In this document: positions 14,736 to 43,996 of the stretch, piece by piece
How positions within the stretch are numbered: position 1 is the first letter of the stretch
Layout: each line of letters opens with the position of its first letter
DNA from: Candidatus Thorarchaeota archaeon
GTDB lineage: Archaea > Asgardarchaeota > Thorarchaeia > Thorarchaeales > Thorarchaeaceae
Direction of reading: 5' to 3'
Assembly (NCBI GenBank): GCA_011364905.1
Contig: RDNZ01000009.1
Span: 1-64,000 of the forward strand
Length of the DNA stretch: 64,000 bases
The notes under the pieces: generated by a model
Database searches by the model: none
Told to the model about the DNA's origin: nothing
The model's input: only the letters and a program-made list of their open reading frames with translations
Program-made: the position numbers and the translations under genes

Positions 14736-15389
14736 TTGAGATTGAGCATAGAACTAGTTGTTTTCGATGTAGATGGAACCCTAACAAAACACAGTAGTGT
14801 CTGGTGGCGACTTCATGAGCATTTTGGCACAACAGACGAGGGACGGAAATATTACAACCAGTATTTCGGCGGAGAAATCACATATGAAGAATGGGCTGAT
14901 CTTGATGCTGCCTTGTGGAAAGGAGAATCCCTTGAGGAAGTCCTGAAGGTGGTGCAATCCACTCAGCTTGCATCCGGAGCTCAAGAAACAATTCGTACTC
15001 TAAAAGGATGTAAACTGAAAACTGCTATTCTGTCTGGTGGCTTAGACATAATGGCTAATGACATTGGTCAAAGAGTTGGCATCGACTATGTGCTGACTAA
15101 CAAGCTTCATCACCGAGATGGGCTTTTAACCGGAGAAGTGGATAACCTCGTGGCATGGGGCGAAAAATACAAAGTGATTCCGAACATCAATGCTCATTTT
15201 GGGATTCCTCCAAAAAACACAGCCTTTGTTGGTGATGGTAGGAATGACATGAGTGTCTTCAAAGTTGTTGGTCTTTCGATTGCTTACAATCCTGAGGATG
15301 CCGAAGTTGCCAACTCTGCTGACGTTGTGATCCGGAAAGATGACCTAAGGGCTATCCTGCCTTATATCATACCGGATTTCCGACAATGA
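14736..15389 (+). CDS. serB: Phosphoserine phosphatase (HAD-IB)
   Basis: FDVDGTL, LSGG, GDGRND motifs. Confidence 0.8.
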   Translation: MRLSIELVVFDVDGTLTKHSSVWWRLHEHFGTTDEGRKYYNQYFGGEITYEEWADLDAALWKGESLEEVLKVVQSTQLASGAQETIRTLKGCKLKTAILSGGLDIMANDIGQRVGIDYVLTNKLHHRDGLLTGEVDNLVAWGEKYKVIPNINAHFGIPPKNTAFVGDGRNDMSVFKVVGLSIAYNPEDAEVANSADVVIRKDDLRAILPYIIPDFRQ

Positions 15390-15446
15390 GAAGCACAAAA
15401 ACATAGGCTTGAAGCAAGATAGTCATGGCGGTTTTCTGCGCACTAT

Positions 15447-16613
15447 TCATTTGAGGTTGGTATACCTTGCTCCGCTTCCAGTATTAAGGAAGACCACATC
15501 TTCATTGAAATCAATTCTACCAGCTTCAATCAAATTACGTAACCCACAGATGCCTACCGCAGCCTCTGGGCATATGTCTAAACCTTCTAGTTTGGCAACC
15601 ATCCTTCTGGTTGGCTCAATTTCCTGGTCTGCCACAGCGACTGCGCTTCCCCCTGAATTCCTAATTGCTTGAAGGATTAATCTGCCAGCAAACGGATTGG
15701 GTACTCTTAATCCCAATGCCTCAGTTTCTCCATTCACCCACTCCTCGATATCATCATCACCTCTTTCAATGGCTCTCACTATTGGTGCGCAACCTCCGCT
15801 CTGTGCGGCATACATTCGTGGACGCTCGGAACCAATGAGTCCAATGGTTTCAAGTTCATCGAAAGCTTTCCAAATCCCGATGATTGCAGTTCCTCCTCCC
15901 GTTGGGCAGATTATTGCGTCAGGAACCGACCACCCCATCTGTTCACAGATCTCAAATCCCAGTGTCTTTTTTCCCTCAACTCGATAGGGTTCCTTCGTGG
16001 TTGAAAGATCCGTCCAATTTTCATTTTGATCTCTCATTACTTTGCCCGCATCTGAAATTGTGCCTTTCACACGAGTTGTGATCGCACCAAACAGCTCACA
16101 TAGTTGAAAGAATGATTCAGGCGTATCTTCCGGCATGAAGATGTGAGCTTTCAAGGCTGCAGCAGCTGCATATGCACATGTGGATACCGCCGCATTCCCA
16201 GCTGAGGGGAGGGCAAACTCTTCTGCTCCTAACTCCATATGTCGAGAAACAGTCGCACAGAGACCTCTGTCCTTGAAACTTGAGGTTGGATTTTGAGACT
16301 CGTCTTTGATTCGGAGTATTTGAAGACCAATGTGTTTCCCTAACCGTCTAGAGAGTAATAGTGGTGTCCATCCCTCACCAAGGCTTACTATGCACGAAGG
16401 TGACTTCACGGGGAGAAGTTGTGAGTACCTCCACATCGAATTCACATCTGAGGGAAACTCGTTGTTTGCCAGAGCTTCTCTGACGCCTATCAGGTCATAA
16501 ACGGCAAACAAGGGCGAACCGCAAACACAATATGTTGCCATTGAGTCAGCTGAGTGCTTTCTCCTACACTGCGGACATTCGAGATGTGAGATGTGTGACA
16601 TCAAAATAATCAC
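15447..16613 (-). CDS. thrC: Threonine synthase (PLP-dependent, N-terminal Zn ribbon)
   Basis: SLGEGWTPL, NPTSSFKDRG, SAGNA, EGKKT, PTGGG, NTGSG. Confidence 0.88.
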   Translation of the reverse strand: MIILMSHISHLECPQCRRKHSADSMATYCVCGSPLFAVYDLIGVREALANNEFPSDVNSMWRYSQLLPVKSPSCIVSLGEGWTPLLLSRRLGKHIGLQILRIKDESQNPTSSFKDRGLCATVSRHMELGAEEFALPSAGNAAVSTCAYAAAAALKAHIFMPEDTPESFFQLCELFGAITTRVKGTISDAGKVMRDQNENWTDLSTTKEPYRVEGKKTLGFEICEQMGWSVPDAIICPTGGGTAIIGIWKAFDELETIGLIGSERPRMYAAQSGGCAPIVRAIERGDDDIEEWVNGETEALGLRVPNPFAGRLILQAIRNSGGSAVAVADQEIEPTRRMVAKLEGLDICPEAAVGICGLRNLIEAGRIDFNEDVVFLNTGSGARYTNLK

Positions 16614-16689: not shown

Positions 16690-17880
16690 ATGGGCGAGCT
16701 AAAACGAAAGACCTTACCGTTCACATCACTAGTAGGTTTGGAACGACTTAAGCTGGCTCTAATCCTAAACGGCATAAACCCACAGATTGGTGGAGTGCTC
16801 ATCTCAGGGCCAAAAGGAACTGGCAAGACCACTGTGGTTCGAGCACTGGCTGATTTGCTTCCTGAGGTGGAGGCCGTTGTGGGATGTAGATTTGGATGCA
16901 ATCCCAATAATCATGATTTTCTGTGTGCTGATTGTAGATCCACAATTGAATCGGGAAAGAAACTCAAGTCTGAGTCTAGAAAGATGCGTGTCATCAATCT
17001 CCCGCTCTCTACTACAGAAGATCGTTTGATTGGGGCTCTAGACATAGAACGCGTCTTACAAGAAGGAATTCAAGCACTTCGACCAGGAATACTTGCAGAA
17101 GCCAATCAAAATGTTCTCTATGTTGATGAGGTGAATCTATTACCTGACCATTTAGTTGACGATCTCTTAGATGCGGCAGCAACAAAGATCAATGTGATTG
17201 AACGTGAGGGAATATCGGTTTCTCATCCCTCCGATTTTGTTCTAATTGGAACAATGAATCCTGAGGAAGGAGAACTAAGACCGCAGCTCCTAGATCGATT
17301 TCCTCTTCATGTTGCAGTTAGTGGTCATCACTCGATTGATGATAGAATGCAACTCGTAAGGCGAAACCTCGCCTTTGAAGAAGACCCTGACAAATTCAGA
17401 GCTACCTGGGAGGAAAAACAGGTCGAGCTTCGTAATCAGATAATTCAAGCGAAAGAACTGCTGAGGGATGTGGTCCTTCCTGACTCTCATCTCAGAGCTA
17501 TTGCAATGGCTTGCGACGCTCTTGAAGTCGATGGTGTTCGACCTGACATCATCATCAGCAAGGCTGCAATCACTAATGCCGCTTTGGAAGGAAGAACAGA
17601 GGTTTCGCTAGAAGATATGAAAGTCGCCTCGCAACTTGTACTCAGTCATAGAACACGTCGAGGCGGACTATTGGAACCGCCTCTTCCAGATGATGTGGAC
17701 AAAGCCATTACAAAAGCAGCTGAGGTTGCTCAGAGAACAGAACGCCGGAAATCCCCCACAGAGGTTCCGGAGGAAGACGATAAGTCCGGACCAAGATTGA
17801 GCGGCGGAGGTTTTGGTAGAGGAAATAGGTTTGCCACATCTGGCAGACAGGACGGCAAAAAAAAACTCCGAAAGGAGTAA
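16690..17880 (+). CDS. ChlI/BchI-type chelatase AAA+ ATPase (5' part of a probable frameshifted chlD-like gene)
   Basis: [41 protein letters not shown]. Confidence 0.92.
17857..17878 (+). promoter_or_regulatory. Putative -1 frameshift/slippage site (A9 run plus GAAA tetraloop hairpin)
   Basis: GGC AAA AAA AAA CTC CGA AAG GAG TAA; the -1 frame is open from 17829 to 19355; actcc-gaaa-ggagt hairpin. Confidence 0.65.
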
Positions 17881-17924
17881 GAAATCCTAGGGGTGACCCA
17901 ATCAAAGGAACCATCTGCGCTATT

Positions 17925-19355
17925 ATGATGGTAGTAGTATTCATCTGGTTTGCTTGGGTTTTCGTTAGTCCCATAAATTGGCTATTTGGGACCTACTATC
18001 TTCAATTTCCAACAGCTCCAGCATTAATAATTGACACAATAGTTATTGCTCCTGCAATTTGGTTCTTAGTACGAAAGTGGCTTGAAGTTATGACGCGCAG
18101 AACCAGTGGTCCAGCGGCTGGTATCGACACAGTTGAACCGGGTGGGGGACCACCAGAGGCAGGTGATGAATGGGGTCTGGCCACAAGACCATACTCTCCT
18201 CAGACTCCTGATATGATTTCAGGTCCAAAATCGGAAATCAGGGATGCTCCATTTGGACTTGATGATGGCTTTTTTGTAAAGCTACCTGATATTGACGCAG
18301 GTGAGGAGCTTTTCGACCGCGAGAAACTGAAGACACGAGCCATGATTCGTGCCAGAGTTTCATCTGGCGGGTGGGTCAAAAAGAGAGTGAGCTCAAGAGC
18401 TGTAGGGTCTCTGAAATCCTCAGACACATTGAAACATGGCCGGCCTGTTCGTTCTAGAATTCCTAGTCGCGAAATCAGCAACATACATGTTCCGTCAACG
18501 GTGATGGCTGCAATCGCACGAACCGGCAAAACCTCCGGAGGACCGATCAAGATCATAAAGGAGGATCTCCGCGAGAGCGTGTTCACGGGAAGAACTCCTT
18601 TGACGATTATCCTTGTGATAGATGTTAGTCTCTCAATGAAGGGGAGTATGGAACAAGTGAGAGCTTTTCTTGAACGAGTAGAAAGCGAAACACGGGGATC
18701 CAAAGATCGGACGGGTATTATTGCTTTCAAAGACAGTGGAGCTGTAGAGATACAAGCTCCTACTACGAATTGGAATAAGATATATCGTGCATTAGGCCGA
18801 CTGAGGATTTCGGGGCTCACACCTCTTGCTGAGGCTTTGAAGAAATCCCTGGAAACCATTCGCAGAGAGCGGATGCGAAATAGTGAAGTGGAACCTCTTG
18901 TCATTCTCATTTCTGACTTCTCCCCGAACATTCCTCTTGCCCAATCAGCAGGTCCAGGACATGAACAGTATACTCCTGTACAGGACCTAGTCCGTGCAGC
19001 TCGGTTGGTCAGGAAAGCGAAGGTTAGATTAGCAGCAGTTAATGTTGATCCTGAACAATCAAAGTGGCCTAGATTTCTGAAACGTCCTTATCATGAAGCC
19101 TTAGAACTTGCGGCCATGTTAAGGACGAGAAAGGAAGGACTGAATGACCCAATTGAAACGATTCTAATGGTGGATGAGTTTCGAAAGACATTTGGCGCAT
19201 ATCTCATAGCCCGAGCAGCTGGTGGGCATGCCTACCTCTCTCGTGAGCTTCTAAAAGAAACATCAATACTTGGCACACTACTTTCTTCAAGTCTTTCTAG
19301 AAGTCGTTTGCGTGAAGATGAATTGCGTCAGGTTGAAGCATATCTCCCACAATAG
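17925..19355 (+). CDS. ChlD-like VWA-domain protein preceded by two TM helices (-1 frame continuation of the AAA+ gene)
   Basis: MIDAS DVSLSM, D..GII.F, GLTPLAEAL, LISD; frame open upstream to 17829 across the A9 run. Confidence 0.85.
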   Translation: MMVVVFIWFAWVFVSPINWLFGTYYLQFPTAPALIIDTIVIAPAIWFLVRKWLEVMTRRTSGPAAGIDTVEPGGGPPEAGDEWGLATRPYSPQTPDMISGPKSEIRDAPFGLDDGFFVKLPDIDAGEELFDREKLKTRAMIRARVSSGGWVKKRVSSRAVGSLKSSDTLKHGRPVRSRIPSREISNIHVPSTVMAAIARTGKTSGGPIKIIKEDLRESVFTGRTPLTIILVIDVSLSMKGSMEQVRAFLERVESETRGSKDRTGIIAFKDSGAVEIQAPTTNWNKIYRALGRLRISGLTPLAEALKKSLETIRRERMRNSEVEPLVILISDFSPNIPLAQSAGPGHEQYTPVQDLVRAARLVRKAKVRLAAVNVDPEQSKWPRFLKRPYHEALELAAMLRTRKEGLNDPIETILMVDEFRKTFGAYLIARAAGGHAYLSRELLKETSILGTLLSSSLSRSRLREDELRQVEAYLPQ

Positions 19356-35538: not shown

Positions 35539-38217
35539 ATGTCTGATAGAAGAGATGCGCAAGCACCAAGCACGGTTGAAGCCATTCGAATGGCATCTGC
35601 ATCCGTATTAGGGACATCAACAGGGCTTGGTTATCCGGTTGGAAGCGCAATTGGCGCTGGTACAATGCTTGAACAGCATTCTGAGTCTGTTTCCATGAAC
35701 ATCGTACCATTGATCTTCAATATCCGTGATACTCTAATGTCATCAGAAGGATTGGAACTTCTCTCAATAGAATATGACCTTGATAGAACTCCGGGTCCGG
35801 AAGTACTTCCTGAACAACTGGTCATAGCTGGAGGTGTCGAAGGCGGAGTCGGTTCTCATGTCTGTGTCCTAAGCTGGGAGAAAGGAGTTGTTGATCCTTT
35901 CAAGATCAATGATTACATGAAGGTCCTGTCCAAAAAGATTGCAGACATAGAAAGTGCTGTGATTAACAATCAGCTGAACTATGAATTTGAAGGTCTCCCA
36001 GTCATGAGTAATTTTGCACACCGCCTAAACAGTGTCTTGTTTGTCGACATGCTTGACCGTCGATTTCAGGGGTCTTGGGATTCCTTGCAGGTAAAGCCGG
36101 ATCATGTCGATATTGACCTAATTGCCAAAATGGCTGTCACTGATGATTTTACACTCCAGCCTCCGGGGCTCAGAGTTGTTGGACGAAAGACCCTTGAGTT
36201 CAAGCTTCCAAACGAGCCAGATGAACGACTTGTCGCTCACTTTAAACGACGTATTTTGACACCGAGTGCCATAGAAACTTTGACCAAGGTTGTTCCCGAA
36301 ACCGGTCAAGCTCTTCTGCAGGAACTCAACTATTACGCCTATGCTACGGAGGAGTCAGAAATTGTAGATGGCGTTGTAAGTGCACTAGGCTCTTTTCTCG
36401 GTCAGACTATGGTGTCACTAGCTGATATCGACTCTCTCAAACCTCGCATTAACGAGTTTGTAAAGATACTTGAAGAAACCGTTAACGAACTTGAGCATAT
36501 AGTTGAGAACCACCTTGGTTCAGGGAAATCACTCACGATTGATAACCACAGGAGTGAACTGATTTCTGCTGTTTCATCACACAGTGAACTGTCCTCTGGC
36601 ATAAAGAACACTCTTGCCATGGGGATAGTTGAACGATTAATGAATTCAGTTTCTCGAGAGTTCAGTGGACACGGGGAAATCCGTGCTTGGGAACTGAAAG
36701 GAACCCTGAGGTATGCTATTGCCTATGCCAAAAGAGTCTCTCAATATTTCTCGAGGGAGCTAAACCAATACCTTGTTACGAATGCCGCAAAGAAGGCATT
36801 CTTCACTGCTCTTCAAGATTTTAAAAATGAAACAGTCGGGGGGGACATTAGTTCCACTGACATGACATTATTCGATCTCTTCTATGCTGAAGTCCAAGCT
36901 CAGCTTAACGCAGCCTTCGCCAAGGAAGCATTTGAGGGATCTGAGTATCGCGACTTCAAACAATTAATGGATGTCGTGACTCGACAACTGATAGAATCGT
37001 TCAAGACAATCGACATATGGGAGCTTATTGGGTTTGAGAAAGTAGCTGAAATTGCTGGATCTGAGATTCGACAGAAATATTCGATTCCAGAGAGCGAAGA
37101 ACTAACAGAGCATGGTAAAGCTCTGATAGTCCTTCTTGACAACTTCCAGGAACTGGTAGCTGATGTCATTCCTGATGTTGCTGACACTCTTCTTTCAAAA
37201 CCATTAATCCGTCGAATTATCGACAAGATGTTATCAGAACAGACTAGTCTAATACCTGAACTTGAAGCCGCAGTTGAAGGTGCAGGAGAGCGCCCTGATG
37301 AATGGAAAAAAGAAGCAATGGCTTGGGTTGCGAGCTTCAAAAGTGGCCTGAACGAATCGATGACAAGTTCTCAAGCTCTTCTTGCTTTATTGAATTCAAT
37401 TCATGAGATTGTTGGAGAAACAGTGACCCCGAGTGCTATGGTGGATCGCGCCAAGTTTGAAGCTGACCAGCGAGAGCAGATGTTCCTCGCAAAGGTACAG
37501 GAGTGGGAGGAGGTATGTCGGGTTCTTGAGGGTGAAAACGAAGCCATTAGGGCCCACAATGCAAAACGCGAGGAACTACTCACCGAGAAGACTCAGCAGT
37601 ATGAAGCAAAAATGCGTGAATATGAAACTGCACTCAGGGACTATATGGAAAAACTGGAGAAGTACAAAGCTGAGCAAGCTGAGCTGGCTGCCCAAGCCGC
37701 ACAAGCTGCTGAAGTTGCAGAATCACCAATTCCGTCCACTCCGCCACCAGTTGTTACATCATCTCCTCCTCCAGTAGAACCTTCAAAACCTTCGCCCATA
37801 GATGCAGAGTTGGCTGAGATTCGGGCGCAATACCCCGTGAAAGAAGAAAAACCACTGCCTCCTAAACCAGAACCTGATCCCTCACTCAAGTTCTTTGTTG
37901 AATTGCGAGACCTGTTGCAGGGTAGACTCGATCAATTGAGGGAACGAGAGAAAGACATGGAAACGACATTTGCACGAAGGGTTCTAAGACTTCAAGCTGA
38001 AGGAATTGGTGCAGCTTCAATGATTGGACTCGATATAGGTGATGAGTTCGTGGAATACCTCATGGGTTCAAAAGTTCGGAGTCTTGGAAAGTTACTTCCT
38101 CGGGTTGCACGCATGTATCTCAGAGACCCACAAGAAGAGGGATTACTGTACCTTGTAACATTTGAACACCATGCAGGCGAGTTGACTGTATCAGTAGGGA
38201 ACACATACTTGAGGTGA
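35539..38217 (+). CDS. Large hypothetical protein (helical core, coiled coil, Pro-rich insert)
   Basis: 892-aa uninterrupted ORF; SD gaggt; no family recognised. Confidence 0.8.
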   Translation: MSDRRDAQAPSTVEAIRMASASVLGTSTGLGYPVGSAIGAGTMLEQHSESVSMNIVPLIFNIRDTLMSSEGLELLSIEYDLDRTPGPEVLPEQLVIAGGVEGGVGSHVCVLSWEKGVVDPFKINDYMKVLSKKIADIESAVINNQLNYEFEGLPVMSNFAHRLNSVLFVDMLDRRFQGSWDSLQVKPDHVDIDLIAKMAVTDDFTLQPPGLRVVGRKTLEFKLPNEPDERLVAHFKRRILTPSAIETLTKVVPETGQALLQELNYYAYATEESEIVDGVVSALGSFLGQTMVSLADIDSLKPRINEFVKILEETVNELEHIVENHLGSGKSLTIDNHRSELISAVSSHSELSSGIKNTLAMGIVERLMNSVSREFSGHGEIRAWELKGTLRYAIAYAKRVSQYFSRELNQYLVTNAAKKAFFTALQDFKNETVGGDISSTDMTLFDLFYAEVQAQLNAAFAKEAFEGSEYRDFKQLMDVVTRQLIESFKTIDIWELIGFEKVAEIAGSEIRQKYSIPESEELTEHGKALIVLLDNFQELVADVIPDVADTLLSKPLIRRIIDKMLSEQTSLIPELEAAVEGAGERPDEWKKEAMAWVASFKSGLNESMTSSQALLALLNSIHEIVGETVTPSAMVDRAKFEADQREQMFLAKVQEWEEVCRVLEGENEAIRAHNAKREELLTEKTQQYEAKMREYETALRDYMEKLEKYKAEQAELAAQAAQAAEVAESPIPSTPPPVVTSSPPPVEPSKPSPIDAELAEIRAQYPVKEEKPLPPKPEPDPSLKFFVELRDLLQGRLDQLREREKDMETTFARRVLRLQAEGIGAASMIGLDIGDEFVEYLMGSKVRSLGKLLPRVARMYLRDPQEEGLLYLVTFEHHAGELTVSVGNTYLR

Positions 38218-40671
38218 TTGACAATGGCTAGCTCCTGGGTACTAAAGACAAGACAAATGAGTGAAGCTGGAAAAGAAATTCTGCTTCGAGAGGCTTTAGC
38301 TTCGCACATGCGCAGCACTAGAGACCGTCAGTTATTTCAGGAACTTCTCAAGGAAAACAGGCCCCTTAAAGATATGTTCTCATTCTTTGCAGCCTTCTAT
38401 TTACACAGTTATCAGGGTGTTCGTCTCCTAACGCCTTCTATGGAGCCTGGCGCGGGTAGTGAGATGAAAGATGAGCTTGGCGAAGAAGAACGGCATCAGC
38501 TTGAGCTTGAGGTTCGACAGCTTTTTTCTGAGAAACAACATCAAGAGGTTGAAGTGGCGAAACTTGCTAGTGATTTAACAATTCGTTTCATCGATGAACT
38601 AGGAGGGTCCGACAAGTCGCCACAACATAAAGAGAAAATTATTGATATGATACGGCAGACTCTGAGCCAGATTCCTACGACATACACACCAAATCATGAC
38701 ATTGACTTGATGCTTGAAGTCACTGGTTGGGGCGAGAACTGGCGCAATGAGTTATACGTTAAGGCCTCTGGACTGAAAGAGAGTGCGCTCTCTCTAAGGG
38801 AGGAGCTACTTAGAGAGCACCCCTACGAAGTCCCAGAAACATCCGTACTTCGTATGGGCCTTGAAACCATACTTGGACGTGTGGAGTATGTTCAAGGACG
38901 ACTTGCCGAAGCTCTCATTCCAGCAAATAGCTGGGATGCAATCGTTTCTGCAGTTTCGGAAAGATTTTGCAGACCAATGGGCTCTCTCAAAGGACTCAGA
39001 TATGCTCATGAGATACGTCTTGCTATGCTAGAAGCACTCATAGCTGAGTTTGATACCCCCACAACTTTAGAGGGCTTTGAGTCCCTGTTGGGCCGCGTAG
39101 TGACCACAAAAGCGGCGAAAATTCTAGTGGAAGATCCTGACCACATACTCGATACACTCTCTAGCTTTCTCAACGTGAGTGCAGATGAGATCAAAGCTCA
39201 ACTTCGACGTAAAGGCATCAGTGATCTATCAGTTATTGGGCCAGGCTTAGAGGCGTTGACCGAAGACTCTGTTTCCGACTCATCCAAGCCAGAAATCAGT
39301 AAAGAAGAGTTTGAGATGCTGGAGCGTTCTCTAAAGACTCTCGAAAAGATCGAAAGAACTCTTGATGGTCCAGTAAAAGGGATGCTTCGCTCAAAGGGTC
39401 TTCGAGCAACAGAACTTGAAAAAATAGACATCAATATGTTCACAAAGGATCGTGCAAAACTTGTTGGCATTGAAGTCGAAGTTCTAGAGGCCATAAAGGC
39501 AAAGTTGCGGGTTCCACCGCCAGAGGAAATAGCACGACTTCTAAAGACTAGAGAGCAAGTTCAAAGTGGCGCATTGAGTTCACTGGGCATCTCGTCAGCG
39601 AGAGATTTCAGCCAACAAAGAGCTGAGGAGGAAACTGCTGTAAGTTTACGCCTTGACCTCATCTGGCACTTCACTATAGGCATACTCACGAATCTAACTC
39701 GCGTTGTTGAGTCCTACATTCGGTCAAAACAAGACTTGTTACGTATCAAAGCACTGCTGAAAAGTATCTATGAAGACACAGAGATGGTTCTACAATTTCT
39801 CCGGGAGGAAATACTAATCGACTTGGCATCCATGCGAATCTACGAACTCAAAGTCCTTTACCCCGAATTAGATGCTAAGACAATATGTACTTGGATGCAT
39901 GCCAGGCTCTCTAGTAAAGGTATGAATACTGCAGGAGACGACCTCGAAACCTCAACAAGCCCAGTCTTTGAAGGCATCGTTGACAAATCGTTAGACATGT
40001 CAAATTTGGAGTATGATAATTATGCGATTGCTTTTGACATTATGCAACGTTTCTTGAAACAAGAACGGCTAGAGAAGCTGGCAAAGGAAGAATATGCGCT
40101 TGAAGCTAAAGAAAAAGAGAAGCGTAGGATTGAGGAAAAGAAGGAAGGTATCGATGTTTTGATGTACCTTCATAATAAGGCTCGGACTGTCTTTCGAGCA
40201 ATCAGTCGGGTTGGCACTAAGGGTCTCGAATGGACCCATAATGACACAACCAAGTGTACCAATCTTCTTTCTTACTATATCAAGACCAATAGAGGAAGAA
40301 AAATCTGTTCTGCATGCGGATCCCTACCGAAGGATGGAAAATGCGCTCAACACGGATCGAACTTCATCAAGGATGCATCAGATATGGACAATCTGTCTAT
40401 CTTTATCATGCAGAGTCTTTTTGAAATCAAAGAAGGATTGATCGGAGAAGGTAGAGGGGTTGAGCCAATGTCATGGGACAAAGCGAAATCCACTGTTGAG
40501 CGAGAGATTGGAGTTCTGAAAAGAAGAGGAAAACTGACATCCAAGACTAACCTAAAGGAACTGATGCCCGGAGAGATCAATTACATTGTTGGTCCTGCAA
40601 TGTCCGCTATTGTTGCTAAGTACTTCAACGAGTCATTGGGTTACGCCGCACGTCGGGCTGAAATAGCGTAG
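38218..40671 (+). CDS. Large hypothetical helical protein with C-terminal CxxC..CxxH Zn site
   Basis: 817-aa ORF abutting the previous stop (gaggtga SD); CSACG...CAQH. Confidence 0.8.
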   Translation: MTMASSWVLKTRQMSEAGKEILLREALASHMRSTRDRQLFQELLKENRPLKDMFSFFAAFYLHSYQGVRLLTPSMEPGAGSEMKDELGEEERHQLELEVRQLFSEKQHQEVEVAKLASDLTIRFIDELGGSDKSPQHKEKIIDMIRQTLSQIPTTYTPNHDIDLMLEVTGWGENWRNELYVKASGLKESALSLREELLREHPYEVPETSVLRMGLETILGRVEYVQGRLAEALIPANSWDAIVSAVSERFCRPMGSLKGLRYAHEIRLAMLEALIAEFDTPTTLEGFESLLGRVVTTKAAKILVEDPDHILDTLSSFLNVSADEIKAQLRRKGISDLSVIGPGLEALTEDSVSDSSKPEISKEEFEMLERSLKTLEKIERTLDGPVKGMLRSKGLRATELEKIDINMFTKDRAKLVGIEVEVLEAIKAKLRVPPPEEIARLLKTREQVQSGALSSLGISSARDFSQQRAEEETAVSLRLDLIWHFTIGILTNLTRVVESYIRSKQDLLRIKALLKSIYEDTEMVLQFLREEILIDLASMRIYELKVLYPELDAKTICTWMHARLSSKGMNTAGDDLETSTSPVFEGIVDKSLDMSNLEYDNYAIAFDIMQRFLKQERLEKLAKEEYALEAKEKEKRRIEEKKEGIDVLMYLHNKARTVFRAISRVGTKGLEWTHNDTTKCTNLLSYYIKTNRGRKICSACGSLPKDGKCAQHGSNFIKDASDMDNLSIFIMQSLFEIKEGLIGEGRGVEPMSWDKAKSTVEREIGVLKRRGKLTSKTNLKELMPGEINYIVGPAMSAIVAKYFNESLGYAARRAEIA

Positions 40672-41000: not shown

Positions 41001-41117
41001 AAGAATTCACATACCCGCTTTGCATATAGTGACTTCTATTTCTAAATGCAGACCAATGGAATTAGCAAATCGAAGGCCATTTATACCCACTATCAATCCC
41101 GAGCCCTTGGTGATTCT

Positions 41118-42515
41118 TTGAAGAAGTTCAAACCAGAAGGAGTAATGCCTGCCCTAGTAACACCATTCACGCGAGATGGCGACATCAATGAGGAGGGCTT
41201 TAAACAAGTCATTGACTACACCATTGAGAAAGGCGCGACTGGTGTGGTAGCTCTAGGTACGACTGGTGAGTTCTCATACTTGAGGACAGAAGAACGGAAG
41301 AAGATACTAAGACTCACTGAGAAGTATGTAGATGGAAGAGTACCTATCATTGCAGGAACAGGTCAAAACAGCACTCGTGCGACCTTGGCACTCACACAGT
41401 TCGCCGCAGATTTGGGGTGTGATGCGGCACTCGTAATCTCGCCGTACTATCTACGACCAACGGACAAAGGGTACTATGAGCACTATGAGGAAATTGCTAC
41501 CAAGGGAAATATCCCAGTTATCCTATACAATATACCACAATGCACCCTTGGAGTTCTTAATTCGAATGTCGTCGAGGACCTAGCGTTTTTGGATAATATT
41601 GTTGGCATCAAAGACAGTAGCGGAAGTGTGCCCTACATTCTTGAACTGATTCAAAAGCTCAAGGGGAAAATGGAGGTCATTATTGGAGCCGATGAGTGCT
41701 TCCTCTCTGCGATAGTGGCTGGCTCAAAAGCTGCGATCATGGCTTCAGCGAATGTGATTCCACATATTTGGCTTGAAATCATGAGATTGGCGCAAAGCGG
41801 GAAAGTCGAGGAAGCCGCTGAGCTCCAGCGTACTACTCAAACTTTTGCCCGAATGGTTTTGAAGTATGGGGCTGCTCCGCCGGTTAAAGCAGCATTGAAA
41901 ATGATAGGTTTGGACGCAGGTCGTGCCAGAATGCCCCTTAATAGCGGCGGGACTCTTACACCTGAGATGAAAGAAGAGATACGAATTGAGTTAGAGAAGA
42001 TGGGTGTCATTCCGAAATTGGAACATCCTCCGGTTCAGACAAATATCGATGTGATTGAGTTCCTTGCTAGTCAGGGGTTAATGCTAGAGCAGACTCCGGA
42101 CATTTCTGTCAGTAGCGCTGCAAACGAGAAGGTGTCCGTTGGTGTTGCCGTTGGCTCTAAGAAGGGGCCAGTTGGTCGGACATTTGTAAGACTGCTCACA
42201 GTACCGAAGGTTGGCCATGAAGCTCTGACCGTCATTCTTGAGCCAAACCTGGCTGTTAAGCCTAGTAGTCTTATGCTTCCAGTACAGAAAATACAGTCCA
42301 TGCGCCAAGCATCTTTGTTCTATGGGCCGGTTCAGTCTGGTGCTGCCAAAGCAATTTCATCGTTCTTGGAAGCGAATAAGATACCAGAAAAATCGGTTGT
42401 TGATGATTTGATCATTCTAACTCTAGATATTGACTTGAATTCGAGCGACCGCCGCGAGATTACAGCTGCGGCTCAACAAGCTGTTGAAGAAGCGCTACAT
42501 GGAATTTGGGGGTGA
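41118..42515 (+). CDS. DapA-family class I aldolase fused to a degenerate Fae-like domain (paralog 1)
   Basis: PALVTPF, GTTGEF, PYY, YNIP, GIKDSSG; C-terminal ILEPNLAVKP...RQA..FYGPVQ; SD ggtga before TTG 41118. Confidence 0.85.
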   Translation: MKKFKPEGVMPALVTPFTRDGDINEEGFKQVIDYTIEKGATGVVALGTTGEFSYLRTEERKKILRLTEKYVDGRVPIIAGTGQNSTRATLALTQFAADLGCDAALVISPYYLRPTDKGYYEHYEEIATKGNIPVILYNIPQCTLGVLNSNVVEDLAFLDNIVGIKDSSGSVPYILELIQKLKGKMEVIIGADECFLSAIVAGSKAAIMASANVIPHIWLEIMRLAQSGKVEEAAELQRTTQTFARMVLKYGAAPPVKAALKMIGLDAGRARMPLNSGGTLTPEMKEEIRIELEKMGVIPKLEHPPVQTNIDVIEFLASQGLMLEQTPDISVSSAANEKVSVGVAVGSKKGPVGRTFVRLLTVPKVGHEALTVILEPNLAVKPSSLMLPVQKIQSMRQASLFYGPVQSGAAKAISSFLEANKIPEKSVVDDLIILTLDIDLNSSDRREITAAAQQAVEEALHGIWG

Positions 42516-42520
42516 ATCAA

Positions 42521-43996
42521 GTGACTAGCGAATTTCGATTCAAAGGCGTCTATCCCGCTCTTGTGACACCATTTGATAAGAATGGGGTTAATGAAAAGCA
42601 ATATCGCAATCTCATAGATTTCACGATTAAAAATGGCGCTACTGGGATAGTCCCTTGCGGAACTACAGGTGAGTTCACGAGCATGCGATTCGAGGAAAAA
42701 GAAGAGGCTATCCGTATCGCGTGTAAAGCCGCAAAGGGTAGAGTTCCAGTGCTTGCGGGAACAGGTCATGCGTATACCAACGATGCTATCAAACTAACTC
42801 GCAGAGCCGCTGAGTTTGGAGCCGCTGCGGCTCTCGTGGTCACTCCTTATTTCATGAAGCCATCCGAGAAGGAGATCTACGAACATTTCGAAAAAATCGC
42901 AAATAATAGTGATATTCCAATTATCGTTTACAACATCCCTCAGGTGACTGGTGTTCCTTTACATTGGACTTTGATTGATGGTCTCAGAGAAATTGATGGA
43001 ATTGTGGGCCTAAAAGATTCAAGTGGTGATCTAGTCAATTTAACAACGATTCTTGTACGTAAGCCTGATAATTTCCAAGTCATGGTCGGTCACGACGAGG
43101 TGGCCTTGCCAGCTTTGGCATCAGGCTGCAATGGTGCTATCCTTGCAAGCGCCAATGTTTTTCCTGACCGGTATATCAGGATGCAGAGTGCGCTTGCTAC
43201 AGGCGATCTAAAAGAAGCTCGTATCATTCAGCGAAGCATTCAGAAAATTGTACGCATCTTTGTGAATAATGGTGGTGGTCTAGCCGTTAAGGCTGCACTA
43301 AACATGATGGGTGTACCAGTAGGCAATGCAAGACATCCACTTCTCATCGGAGATAGCCTCGGATATGAAATGCATGATGAGATTCGGACTTGTCTTGAAG
43401 ACCTCCAAATGATTCCACGTGGATTTGTCACTTTCAAGATGGGCAACCGATATATTGAGAGTGAGACCTATCCCAAAGCAGTAGGCATGGTCCCGGATGT
43501 CGTTGAAGACTTGACTCTTTTGCATGGAGAAGCCCTCTTTGGCGGAGGCAATGATGTGGCACATGTGGATTTGATCATGGGCTTGCGTTCTGGTCCTATG
43601 AGTGATGCATTGAAGACTGCTGGAAAAGTGACTGAAGGCTTTCACCAATCGAACATAATCAAAGAACTTGAGCTGACCACTATATTTGCACCCACTGTAA
43701 CAATCACATCAGAAAGACACCGAAAGATGGTCTATGAAGTAGCTCAACGTGCAGTCGAAGACGCTGTAAGACGGACAATCACTGACAATATTATCCCCGA
43801 GGAACTTGTTCGAGACCTTGTAATTGCAGCGAATGTTTTTGTTCATCCAAGTGCTGTAAACAAAACTCGCGTTCATATTAACAACTTCATCGCAGTCCGA
43901 CATGCCCTTCGAAGAGCCATTGAGGGACGTCAGAGTGTGGAGGAAATAATTGCTAGAAAGGACTCGGCGAGACATCCATTTGCCTATAATCCCTAG
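42521..43996 (+). CDS. DapA-family class I aldolase fused to a formaldehyde-activating enzyme (Fae)-like domain (paralog 2)
   Basis: GTTGEF, YNIP, GLKDSSG; C-terminal GEALFG.GNDVAHVDL..G, VFVHP.A, N..A...A..RA, SARHPF. Confidence 0.88.
   Translation: MTSEFRFKGVYPALVTPFDKNGVNEKQYRNLIDFTIKNGATGIVPCGTTGEFTSMRFEEKEEAIRIACKAAKGRVPVLAGTGHAYTNDAIKLTRRAAEFGAAAALVVTPYFMKPSEKEIYEHFEKIANNSDIPIIVYNIPQVTGVPLHWTLIDGLREIDGIVGLKDSSGDLVNLTTILVRKPDNFQVMVGHDEVALPALASGCNGAILASANVFPDRYIRMQSALATGDLKEARIIQRSIQKIVRIFVNNGGGLAVKAALNMMGVPVGNARHPLLIGDSLGYEMHDEIRTCLEDLQMIPRGFVTFKMGNRYIESETYPKAVGMVPDVVEDLTLLHGEALFGGGNDVAHVDLIMGLRSGPMSDALKTAGKVTEGFHQSNIIKELELTTIFAPTVTITSERHRKMVYEVAQRAVEDAVRRTITDNIIPEELVRDLVIAANVFVHPSAVNKTRVHINNFIAVRHALRRAIEGRQSVEEIIARKDSARHPFAYNP

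Follow-up and report, generated by a model that had tools for sequence, protein, structure and literature searches.

Organization of the locus

The stretch of DNA analysed here (the window) covers the first 64,000 nucleotides of contig RDNZ01000009.1 (assembly GCA_011364905.1) from a Candidatus Thorarchaeota archaeon. It carries two co-oriented open reading frames (ORFs), 41046..42515 (489 amino acids, aa) and 42506..43996 (496 aa), each encoding an aldolase of the DHDPS family joined to a C-terminal domain of the formaldehyde-activating enzyme Fae. The two genes, called A and B below, form a real, conserved, and unstudied enzyme module that is mis-annotated as DapA. No paper describing a DHDPS-Fae fusion was found in the literature searched, in agreement with a preceding sequence-only reading of this DNA, which knew of no description of the architecture.

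Gene A (41118..42515; frame open from 41046) encodes a DHDPS-family aldolase joined to a Fae-like domain that is truncated at its C-terminus; like all features of the pair, the gene lies on the forward strand. Its class I (beta/alpha)8 aldolase barrel at 41133..41984 (Pfam DHDPS, 259.5 bits) contains GTTGE, PYY, YNIPQCT, and a Schiff-base Lys in IKDSSG. The Fae-like half domain at 42120..42500 covers positions 9-135 of the Pfam Fae profile and keeps GH, L, PNL..KP, and RQA..YGP.Q. Gene B (42512..43996) encodes a DHDPS-family aldolase fused to a Fae domain with a deleted central loop. Its class I barrel at 42539..43345 (Pfam DHDPS, 260.7 bits) contains GTTGE, PYF, YNIPQVT, and a Schiff-base Lys in LKDSSG, and its Fae domain at 43526..43981 covers profile positions 2-158 with GEAL, AH.DL, VFVHP, NN, and the SARHPF arm. 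Two adjacent, co-oriented aldolase-Fae genes are exactly what the sequence-only reading had described, and every motif quoted there is present, namely GTTGE, YNIP, and KDSSG in both proteins, GEALFG..NDVAHVDL, VFVHP, and SARHPF in B, and ILEPNLAVKP and RQASLFYGPVQ in A.

The likely start of A is TTG 41118 (465 aa) or ATG 41145 (456 aa), and both agree with the length of most A homologues (456-465 aa). For B, GTG 42512 (494 aa) is the likely start, and TTG 42506 would give 496 aa; the homologue P0001, which is 96% identical to B, has 494 aa. The two genes meet at 42506..42515, where both candidate starts of B and the TGA stop codon of A (42513-42515) are located. With GTG 42512, the junction reads GTGA, a stop/start overlap that suggests translational coupling of A and B. 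Read from the sequence, TTTATA at 41080..41085, 33 nt upstream of TTG 41118, is a candidate archaeal TATA box for an A-B operon.

Aldolase barrels and the DapA name

Both proteins match Pfam DHDPS (PF00701; E 1e-76 for A and 5e-77 for B) and exceed the cutoff of the NCBIfam dapA model TIGR00674 (229.3 bits for A and 241.6 for B, cutoff 206.15). Both fall under the cutoff of the NCBIfam Fae equivalog TIGR03126 (81.7 bits for A and 112.9 for B, cutoff 118). This combination accounts for the naming of close homologues as DapA in databases. If these names were right, A and B would be genuine DapA (4-hydroxy-tetrahydrodipicolinate synthase) isoenzymes with an accessory domain. The dapA scores speak for this, as do the closest solved structures by sequence, which belong to DHDPS and reach 36% identity in structural alignments.

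The active site and the genomic context speak against it. In DHDPS, Arg138 (E. coli numbering, within YN.P.RT) binds the carboxylate of aspartate semialdehyde. Arg occupies this position in 10 of 15 DapA representatives and in the aligned DHDPS structures. The position is Cys in all 117 A homologues and Val, Leu, or Phe in all 107 B homologues, so that none of the 224 has Arg, and Arg is likewise never found there in the Chloroflexota or Lokiarchaeia fusions described below. The Thorarchaeota family of the window was surveyed in 86 genomes from 16 genera, with some counts made over 85. dapB (TIGR00036) was found in 0/86 genomes, and the Asd-type domain (PF02774) was found in 17/85 and was missing from 68/85. 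In the archaeon's own genome (3.08 Mb, 81% complete), DapB, the Asd-type domain, and homoserine dehydrogenase were not found. The only other DHDPS-family gene of this genome (C36:108361-109257, equivalent to L005:1471-2367) encodes a 298 aa protein (Pfam, 130 bits) with GNTGE, a Lys in VKYAFG, and no YN.P.RT, and is therefore not DapA-like either. In addition, the fusions form a clade separate from the DapA representatives (Shimodaira-Hasegawa-like approximate likelihood ratio test, SH-aLRT, 99). A DapA function was rejected on the basis of the missing Arg138, the missing DapB, and the absence of the Asd-type domain from most genomes. The suspicion that these are not lysine-pathway enzymes is thus borne out; A and B are almost certainly not DapA, and it is extremely improbable that they are isoenzymes of it.

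The catalytic equipment of the barrels is otherwise intact. The Schiff-base Lys (Lys161) is kept in 117/117 A and 103/107 B homologues, and Tyr133 and GTTGE (Thr44) are conserved in both groups. On these residues, both barrels are apparently active as class I Schiff-base 2-oxoacid aldolases. AlphaFold2 (AF2) models were obtained with high confidence for A (mean predicted local distance difference test, pLDDT, 91.7) and for B (pLDDT 91, predicted template modelling score 0.89), in which the C-terminal arm is the sole low-confidence part. The B barrel superposes on 2EHH with a Foldseek template modelling score of 0.94. The A barrel gives Z scores of 37-39 to DHDPS, NAL, and HOGA structures; its top match is human 4-hydroxy-2-oxoglutarate aldolase HOGA1 (Z 38.9), tied with DHDPS and NAL entries. 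A G-x-D-E motif after strand 6 is closer to the NAL motif than to DapA.

Fae domains with complementary losses

Pfam Fae (PF08714; 159 positions, cutoff 27) matches A with 93.8-96.3 bits and B with 102.4-105.6 bits. The solved Fae structure 1Y5Y aligns with B over residues 8-168 (E 2.6e-19), including AH.DL, FVHP, and HPF, and with A over residues 16-129 only (E 9e-10), where VS.G replaces AH.D. Residues 318-456 of the A model superpose on 1Y5Y residues 5-147 with Z 21.8 and a root-mean-square deviation of 1.4 Å over 139 aligned residues. The A domain ends at about 1Y5Y residue 147, and the missing remainder holds the C-terminal arm. Both C-terminal domains are real Fae-fold domains, as had been read from the motifs, and their losses are complementary.

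This complementarity, first noticed in the window's two proteins, extends across the family and recurs in Chloroflexota pairs. The homologues of A (117) and B (107) were aligned with about 30 canonical Asgard Fae and Fae-Hps proteins. Among the residues invariant in canonical Fae, GEAL, the His/Asp motif, VT, F.HP, N, RA, and the C-terminal A.HP arm are kept only in B, and GH, L, PNL, KP, RQA, and GP are kept only in A. B has a four-residue deletion of PNLP, and its RQA/GP motif is replaced. A lacks GEAL, the catalytic His/Asp (with VS.G instead), and the C-terminal HPF arm. The AH.DL His of B, the Fae catalytic His (His22 of Methylobacterium extorquens Fae), is present in 99% of B and 0% of A homologues. 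In the structure paper on 1Y5Y/1Y60, methylene-tetrahydromethanopterin (methylene-H4MPT) is reportedly bound between adjacent subunits, and His22 is said to be the acid catalyst, with an ordering of the C-terminal arm.

A strict Fae core was defined as the 46 columns that are identical in canonical Fae and in complete-Fae fusions. In Thorarchaeota, at least one paralogue keeps 38 of these columns: 7 are shared by both, 9 belong to A alone, and 22 to B alone; the other 8 are lost from both. A retains 16/46 and B 29/46, and the full set is found in neither chain. The key residues are distributed in the same manner in Thorarchaeota and Chloroflexota, with His23, E12, F120, N135, and H165/P166 in B only and L53, P59, A81, and G86/P87 in A only. 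Family-invariant residues are numerous in both Fae halves, which indicates that neither half is decaying.

Pairing in the Thorarchaeota family

Fae matches were found in 79/86 family genomes and in all 16 genera, and 71 of the 79 positive genomes have exactly two. The A-type match is always upstream of the B-type match, on the same strand and about 1.4 kb away, so that a survey of the kind called for earlier finds the architecture paired in 16/16 genera. In 26 of 30 retrieved loci, the C-terminus of A lies directly before B, and the remaining four are interrupted by contig ends. In 25 of these 26 loci, -10 to +6 nt separate the A stop from the B start. In this family the matches are weak (E ~1e-30), and the frames that hold them measure ~470-530 aa; canonical Fae of other Asgard families gives E ~1e-66 to 1e-72 in Fae-Hps-sized frames. 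No canonical Fae was found in the 86 family genomes searched. Since only weak matches in fusion-sized frames occur, the pair supplies the only Fae domains of the family.

Distribution beyond Thorarchaeota

A search of 1.84 billion representatives returned ~15 fusion-length clusters. The ESM Atlas contains clusters with this architecture from both Thorarchaeota and Chloroflexota, which carry DapA-type names assigned automatically. A complete Fae domain in a single chain was found in three clusters (P0118, P0119, and P0242), the last of which has 112 members named Lokiarchaeota or Promethearchaeota. These single complete-Fae fusions were not known to the sequence-only reading. Four complete Lokiarchaeia genomes each encode one Fae-Hps and exactly one fusion. 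The Lokiarchaeia fusions score 186-195 bits for a full Pfam Fae domain and have Cys at the Arg138 position. Those at L083, L084, and L085 (genomes G205, G185, and G207) are ~497-500 aa long and contain all canonical Fae motifs in a single chain. The Lokiarchaeia fusion is likely the undivided form of the A/B pair. Its neighbours are a peroxiredoxin and a zinc-ribbon protein.

With the B-like P0243 as the query, species-representative genomes gave ~42 Chloroflexota loci, on contigs of up to 1.08 Mb, from Anaerolineae, Ardenticatenales, Thermoflexia, and Chloroflexia; one locus is labelled Myxococcales and one Gammaproteobacteria. An A-like gene lies directly upstream of the B-like gene in ~35 loci, nearly all from Chloroflexota metagenome-assembled genomes. 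The B-like proteins keep GE..AH.DL in 37/37, FVHP in 37/37, and HPF in 35/37 cases. The A-like proteins keep RQA..YGP.Q in 35/35 and lack the His and HPF. In all 20 sampled bacterial carriers, the only Fae matches are those of the pair, two per genome, with three in one genome in which the B-type match is split; no canonical Fae was found in these 20.

In the trees, the A-type Fae halves of Archaea and Bacteria fall into one clade (SH-aLRT 98) and the B-type halves into another (SH-aLRT 91), and both clades lie outside the complete-Fae fusions. The A-type barrels also group together. From the single clades of each half in both domains of life, it appears that the Fae split arose once and that the two-gene module moved between these domains. 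The trees are quick builds with an unresolved backbone, and the order of events is not proven by them.

One pair of barrel positions differs between the lineages. In DHDPS dimers, residue 107 reaches into the partner's site. At positions 138/107, Thorarchaeota have Cys/Tyr in A and Val/Phe in B (window B has Phe at the DHDPS Tyr107 position), and Chloroflexota (L086-L127) have the reverse, with Val/Phe in A-like and Cys with Tyr or Phe in B-like proteins. If residue 107 reaches the partner here as well, each lineage would combine a Cys138+Phe107' site with a Val138+Tyr107' site. Domain swapping between lineages, which this exchange brings to mind, is not supported by barrel-only and Fae-only trees.

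Several other features accompany the bacterial loci. The recurrent Chloroflexota neighbours are S-adenosylhomocysteine hydrolase (AdoHcyase; 10 loci), a TrmO-like protein (9), a PALP enzyme of 491 aa (6), and an MFS transporter (6). The loci with such neighbours include L091, L099, L100, and about seven other Chloroflexota loci. A conserved ORF of ~431-436 aa without a Pfam match lies just downstream in some loci (L112:5544-6836 and L114:5536-6843, both on the reverse strand). At the Myxococcales-labelled locus, an amino-acid dehydrogenase of the Glu/Leu/Phe/Val type directly follows the pair (L119:5420-6655, forward strand). Clusters P0247 and P0249/P0424, each on a 79,585 bp contig, probably represent a divergent A-like/B-like pair. 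Neither barrel retains GTTGE or the Schiff-base Lys (ILDATG and LADSSG), so the aldolase halves look dead, and the Fae motifs persist in the B-like member.

C1 pathway and threonine genes

The own genome encodes Mch, a marker of the H4MPT pathway, as do 79/86 family genomes; the presence of such a pathway had been named beforehand as a point on which the proposal turned. No Hps was found in the own genome. PanB (PF02548) was found in 76/86 family genomes, among them the archaeon's own (378 bits), which rules out the pair as a substitute for PanB. Threonine synthase (ThrC) was found in 83/85, homoserine dehydrogenase (Hom) in 3/86, and ThrB in 0/86 family genomes. The window itself contains a bona fide threonine synthase at 15447-16610 on the reverse strand (NF006050, 496 bits, cutoff 303). 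Convergent with it (window 14736-16613) is a SerB/HAD-IB phosphatase-like gene at 14736-15386 on the forward strand, which scores just under the SerB cutoffs. Its product might act like Pseudomonas ThrH, a phosphoserine:homoserine phosphotransferase.

Proposed enzyme and alternative explanations

A and B may be two subunits of one hetero-oligomeric bifunctional enzyme in which pyruvate aldol chemistry is coupled to a carrier-bound C1 unit, a reading to which we give slightly less than even weight as a whole. Its parts differ in strength. The heteromeric, split-site arrangement is probable and is suggested by the strict co-occurrence, the fixed A-then-B order, the overlapping or abutting codons, and the complementary residues. 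The hetero-oligomer proposed in the sequence-only reading is therefore supported, though indirectly. Coupling to formaldehyde or another C1 unit, argued by analogy with Fae-Hps, is evenly balanced. 4-Hydroxy-2-oxobutanoate, the compound that a pyruvate Schiff-base aldolase would form with formaldehyde, is a tentative and rather doubtful product. A dedicated natural pyruvate hydroxymethyltransferase, which would convert methylene-H4MPT (methylene-tetrahydrofolate in bacteria) and pyruvate to 4-hydroxy-2-oxobutanoate, is unlikely, if conceivable, as the precise activity. The formation of 4-hydroxy-2-oxobutanoate from pyruvate and formaldehyde is a known aldolase reaction of the promiscuous RhmA, as used in the synthetic homoserine cycle (PMC8879981). 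No natural dedicated 4-hydroxy-2-oxobutanoate aldolase, and no pterin-coupled one, was found described in the literature searched.

In the proposed mechanism, both Fae halves would meet at the A/B interface and rebuild one Fae-type site, to which B would give the catalytic His and the C-terminal arm and A the PNL..KP / GP.Q loop region. The aldolase and the Fae-type site would then exchange the C1 aldehyde, as in archaeal Fae-Hps. The net reaction would be reversible: methylene-pterin + pyruvate + H2O <-> 4-hydroxy-2-oxobutanoate + pterin. The carrier in the Thorarchaeota archaeon would be H4MPT. We lean slightly towards the synthetic direction, in which C1 units of the Wood-Ljungdahl methyl branch would enter a C4 keto acid. 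The opposite, catabolic direction, in which amino-acid breakdown would supply this branch as in the sequence-only reading, is possible too.

Several observations weigh against this proposal. The complementarity of the core columns has a Fisher p of 0.06 in Thorarchaeota and of 1 in Chloroflexota, where the A-like protein keeps more core residues. A Rosetta-stone search for a single-chain A-B fusion (>866 aa) found none, which is a weak negative. A pentamer has been reported for Fae, and dimers or tetramers for DHDPS enzymes. No conserved neighbour that would indicate a pathway, such as a transaminase or a C1 enzyme, was found at the Thorarchaeota, Lokiarchaeia, or Chloroflexota loci examined. 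Only 4/20 bacterial carriers have Mch and 2/20 have RFAP synthase, and all of them have the pair; H4MPT is therefore not the general cofactor of the module. The earlier idea that the C1 unit is handed to a pterin thus agrees with the presence of Mch in the window's own lineage and does not carry over to most bacterial carriers, in which the Fae-type site may bind tetrahydrofolate or another ligand, or no carrier at all. With regard to the product, Asgard families lacking the pair have ThrC without Asd just as often (28/31 in f8, 22/22 in f11, 11/12 in f13, and 16/19 in f14), and homoserine dehydrogenase is present in 4/5 sampled bacterial carriers. ThrC without Asd was therefore discarded as specific support for a homoserine route. 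Moreover, because ThrB is absent from the family, a route to threonine would still need a kinase.

Two alternatives were weighed. The complex may be the same and the aldehyde something other than formaldehyde (glyoxylate, glycolaldehyde, or another), with the Fae module serving oligomerization, regulation, or the binding of another ligand. The scarcity of Mch and RFAP synthase in bacterial carriers, which leaves most of them no H4MPT to bind, fits this explanation, as do the Fae equivalog scores below the cutoff (82 and 113 against 118 bits) and the lack of a full Fae core in either chain. It is also in line with the barrel, whose closest structure, although tied with others, is the glyoxylate-forming HOGA1, and whose G-x-D-E motif after strand 6 resembles that of NAL. 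However, the His, GEAL, and HPF arm of B are invariant in both domains of life, as are PNL and GP.Q of A, as would be expected if the Fae-type pocket worked. The high Pfam Fae scores of the complete-Fae fusions (186-195 bits) and the position of the pair as the only Fae in Thorarchaeota genomes that run the H4MPT pathway point the same way. This alternative is judged unlikely, although it deserves to be kept in view.

The pair could instead be mainly a formaldehyde-activating enzyme, for detoxification or for feeding C1 units to H4MPT, that has replaced a lost Fae or Fae-Hps, and the barrels would then be a scaffold or act on an unrelated substrate. Such a replacement would explain a family with Mch, with canonical Fae in 0/86 genomes, and with no Hps in the own genome, next to Asgard families that have Fae-Hps. 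It is at odds with the strict conservation of the barrel catalytic residues and with a fusion and gene order conserved across domains of life, both of which argue for coupled chemistry. In Lokiarchaeia, furthermore, the fusion exists alongside Fae-Hps and is thus more than a substitute, and the bacterial carriers mostly lack the H4MPT pathway. This explanation is considered quite improbable.

Surroundings of the pair

GC content is even over the whole window, which gives no sign of recent import. The neighbours of the pair within the window are CutA, a membrane protein, a GNAT protein, an M20 deacylase, AlaXM, a GlmU-like gene, and two large unknown proteins. Two large ORFs (892 and 817 aa) with abutting stop and start codons occupy 35539-40671, a short way upstream of the pair, and no Pfam match was found for either protein. 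At 16690-19355, adjacent genes encode ChlI/BchI-like and ChlD-like subunits of the cobaltochelatase or Mg-chelatase type (AAA+ and VWA), both below equivalog cutoffs.

Significance

Correction of the DapA name concerns hundreds of proteins. Under the present annotation, metabolic reconstructions of Thorarchaeota would wrongly credit the organisms with a lysine-pathway step or with a plain Fae. If the proposed coupling is true, the module would connect central 2-oxoacid metabolism with the Wood-Ljungdahl/C1 pool through an undescribed reaction that makes (or cleaves) a C-C bond, and would do so in Asgard archaea and Anaerolineae-type Chloroflexota, both of them abundant in sediments. Synthetic methylotrophy, which borrows promiscuous enzymes for the formaldehyde plus pyruvate step, would also gain a natural template for that step. 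Should the hydroxymethyltransferase activity itself be true, anaerobes with a Wood-Ljungdahl methyl branch would have a direct C1 + C3 -> C4 route to homoserine-family metabolites, and the engineered homoserine-cycle step would have a natural counterpart whose Fae site is split over two paralogous subunits. Together with the undivided Lokiarchaeia form, the pair would be a clear natural case of an inter-subunit active site partitioned between duplicated subunits.

Comparison with known systems

DapA/DHDPS is the nearest family by sequence and fold and shares the barrel, the Schiff-base Lys, Tyr133, and GTTGE with the pair. The pair differs from it in the missing Arg138, the missing DapB, the mostly missing Asd-type domain, the extra Fae domain, and a clade of its own. 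HOGA1, the top structural match of the A barrel, is likewise a class I aldolase of the DHDPS family. Fae of M. extorquens (1Y5Y/1Y60) shares the fold and, in B, the catalytic His and the C-terminal arm. It works on its own as a homo-oligomer, one type of chain providing every site residue, whereas neither chain of the pair has the full core, and many carriers of the pair lack H4MPT genes.

Two other enzymes resemble the proposed reaction rather than the proteins. PanB transfers a hydroxymethyl group from methylene-pterin to C3 of a 2-oxoacid, but it is non-homologous and has a metal-dependent mechanism, whereas the chemistry of the pair is class I. RhmA/YfaU of E. coli, as used in the synthetic homoserine cycle, joins pyruvate and formaldehyde to 4-hydroxy-2-oxobutanoate as proposed here (PMC8879981), but it is a promiscuous class II metal aldolase that works with free formaldehyde in an engineered pathway.

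The closest parallel in design is Fae-Hps (NF009833), which occurs in sister Asgard families. In both systems, a Fae domain is joined to an aldolase-type (beta/alpha)8 enzyme, for which formaldehyde is a product or substrate in Fae-Hps and may be one in the pair. In Fae-Hps, the aldol reaction and the pterin carrier can thereby exchange the C1 aldehyde. The NF009833 model gives 70.4 bits for A and 84.7 for B against a cutoff of 274, with only the Fae part matched. The barrel of the pair is a class I Schiff-base enzyme of the DHDPS family, in contrast to Hps, which belongs to the orotidine-monophosphate-decarboxylase family. The aldolase is N-terminal to Fae in the pair, and Hps is C-terminal in Fae-Hps. 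The expected donor is pyruvate for the pair and ribulose-5-phosphate for Fae-Hps. Finally, the Fae core of the pair is divided over two paralogous chains, unlike that of Fae-Hps, and a full site would need both of them.

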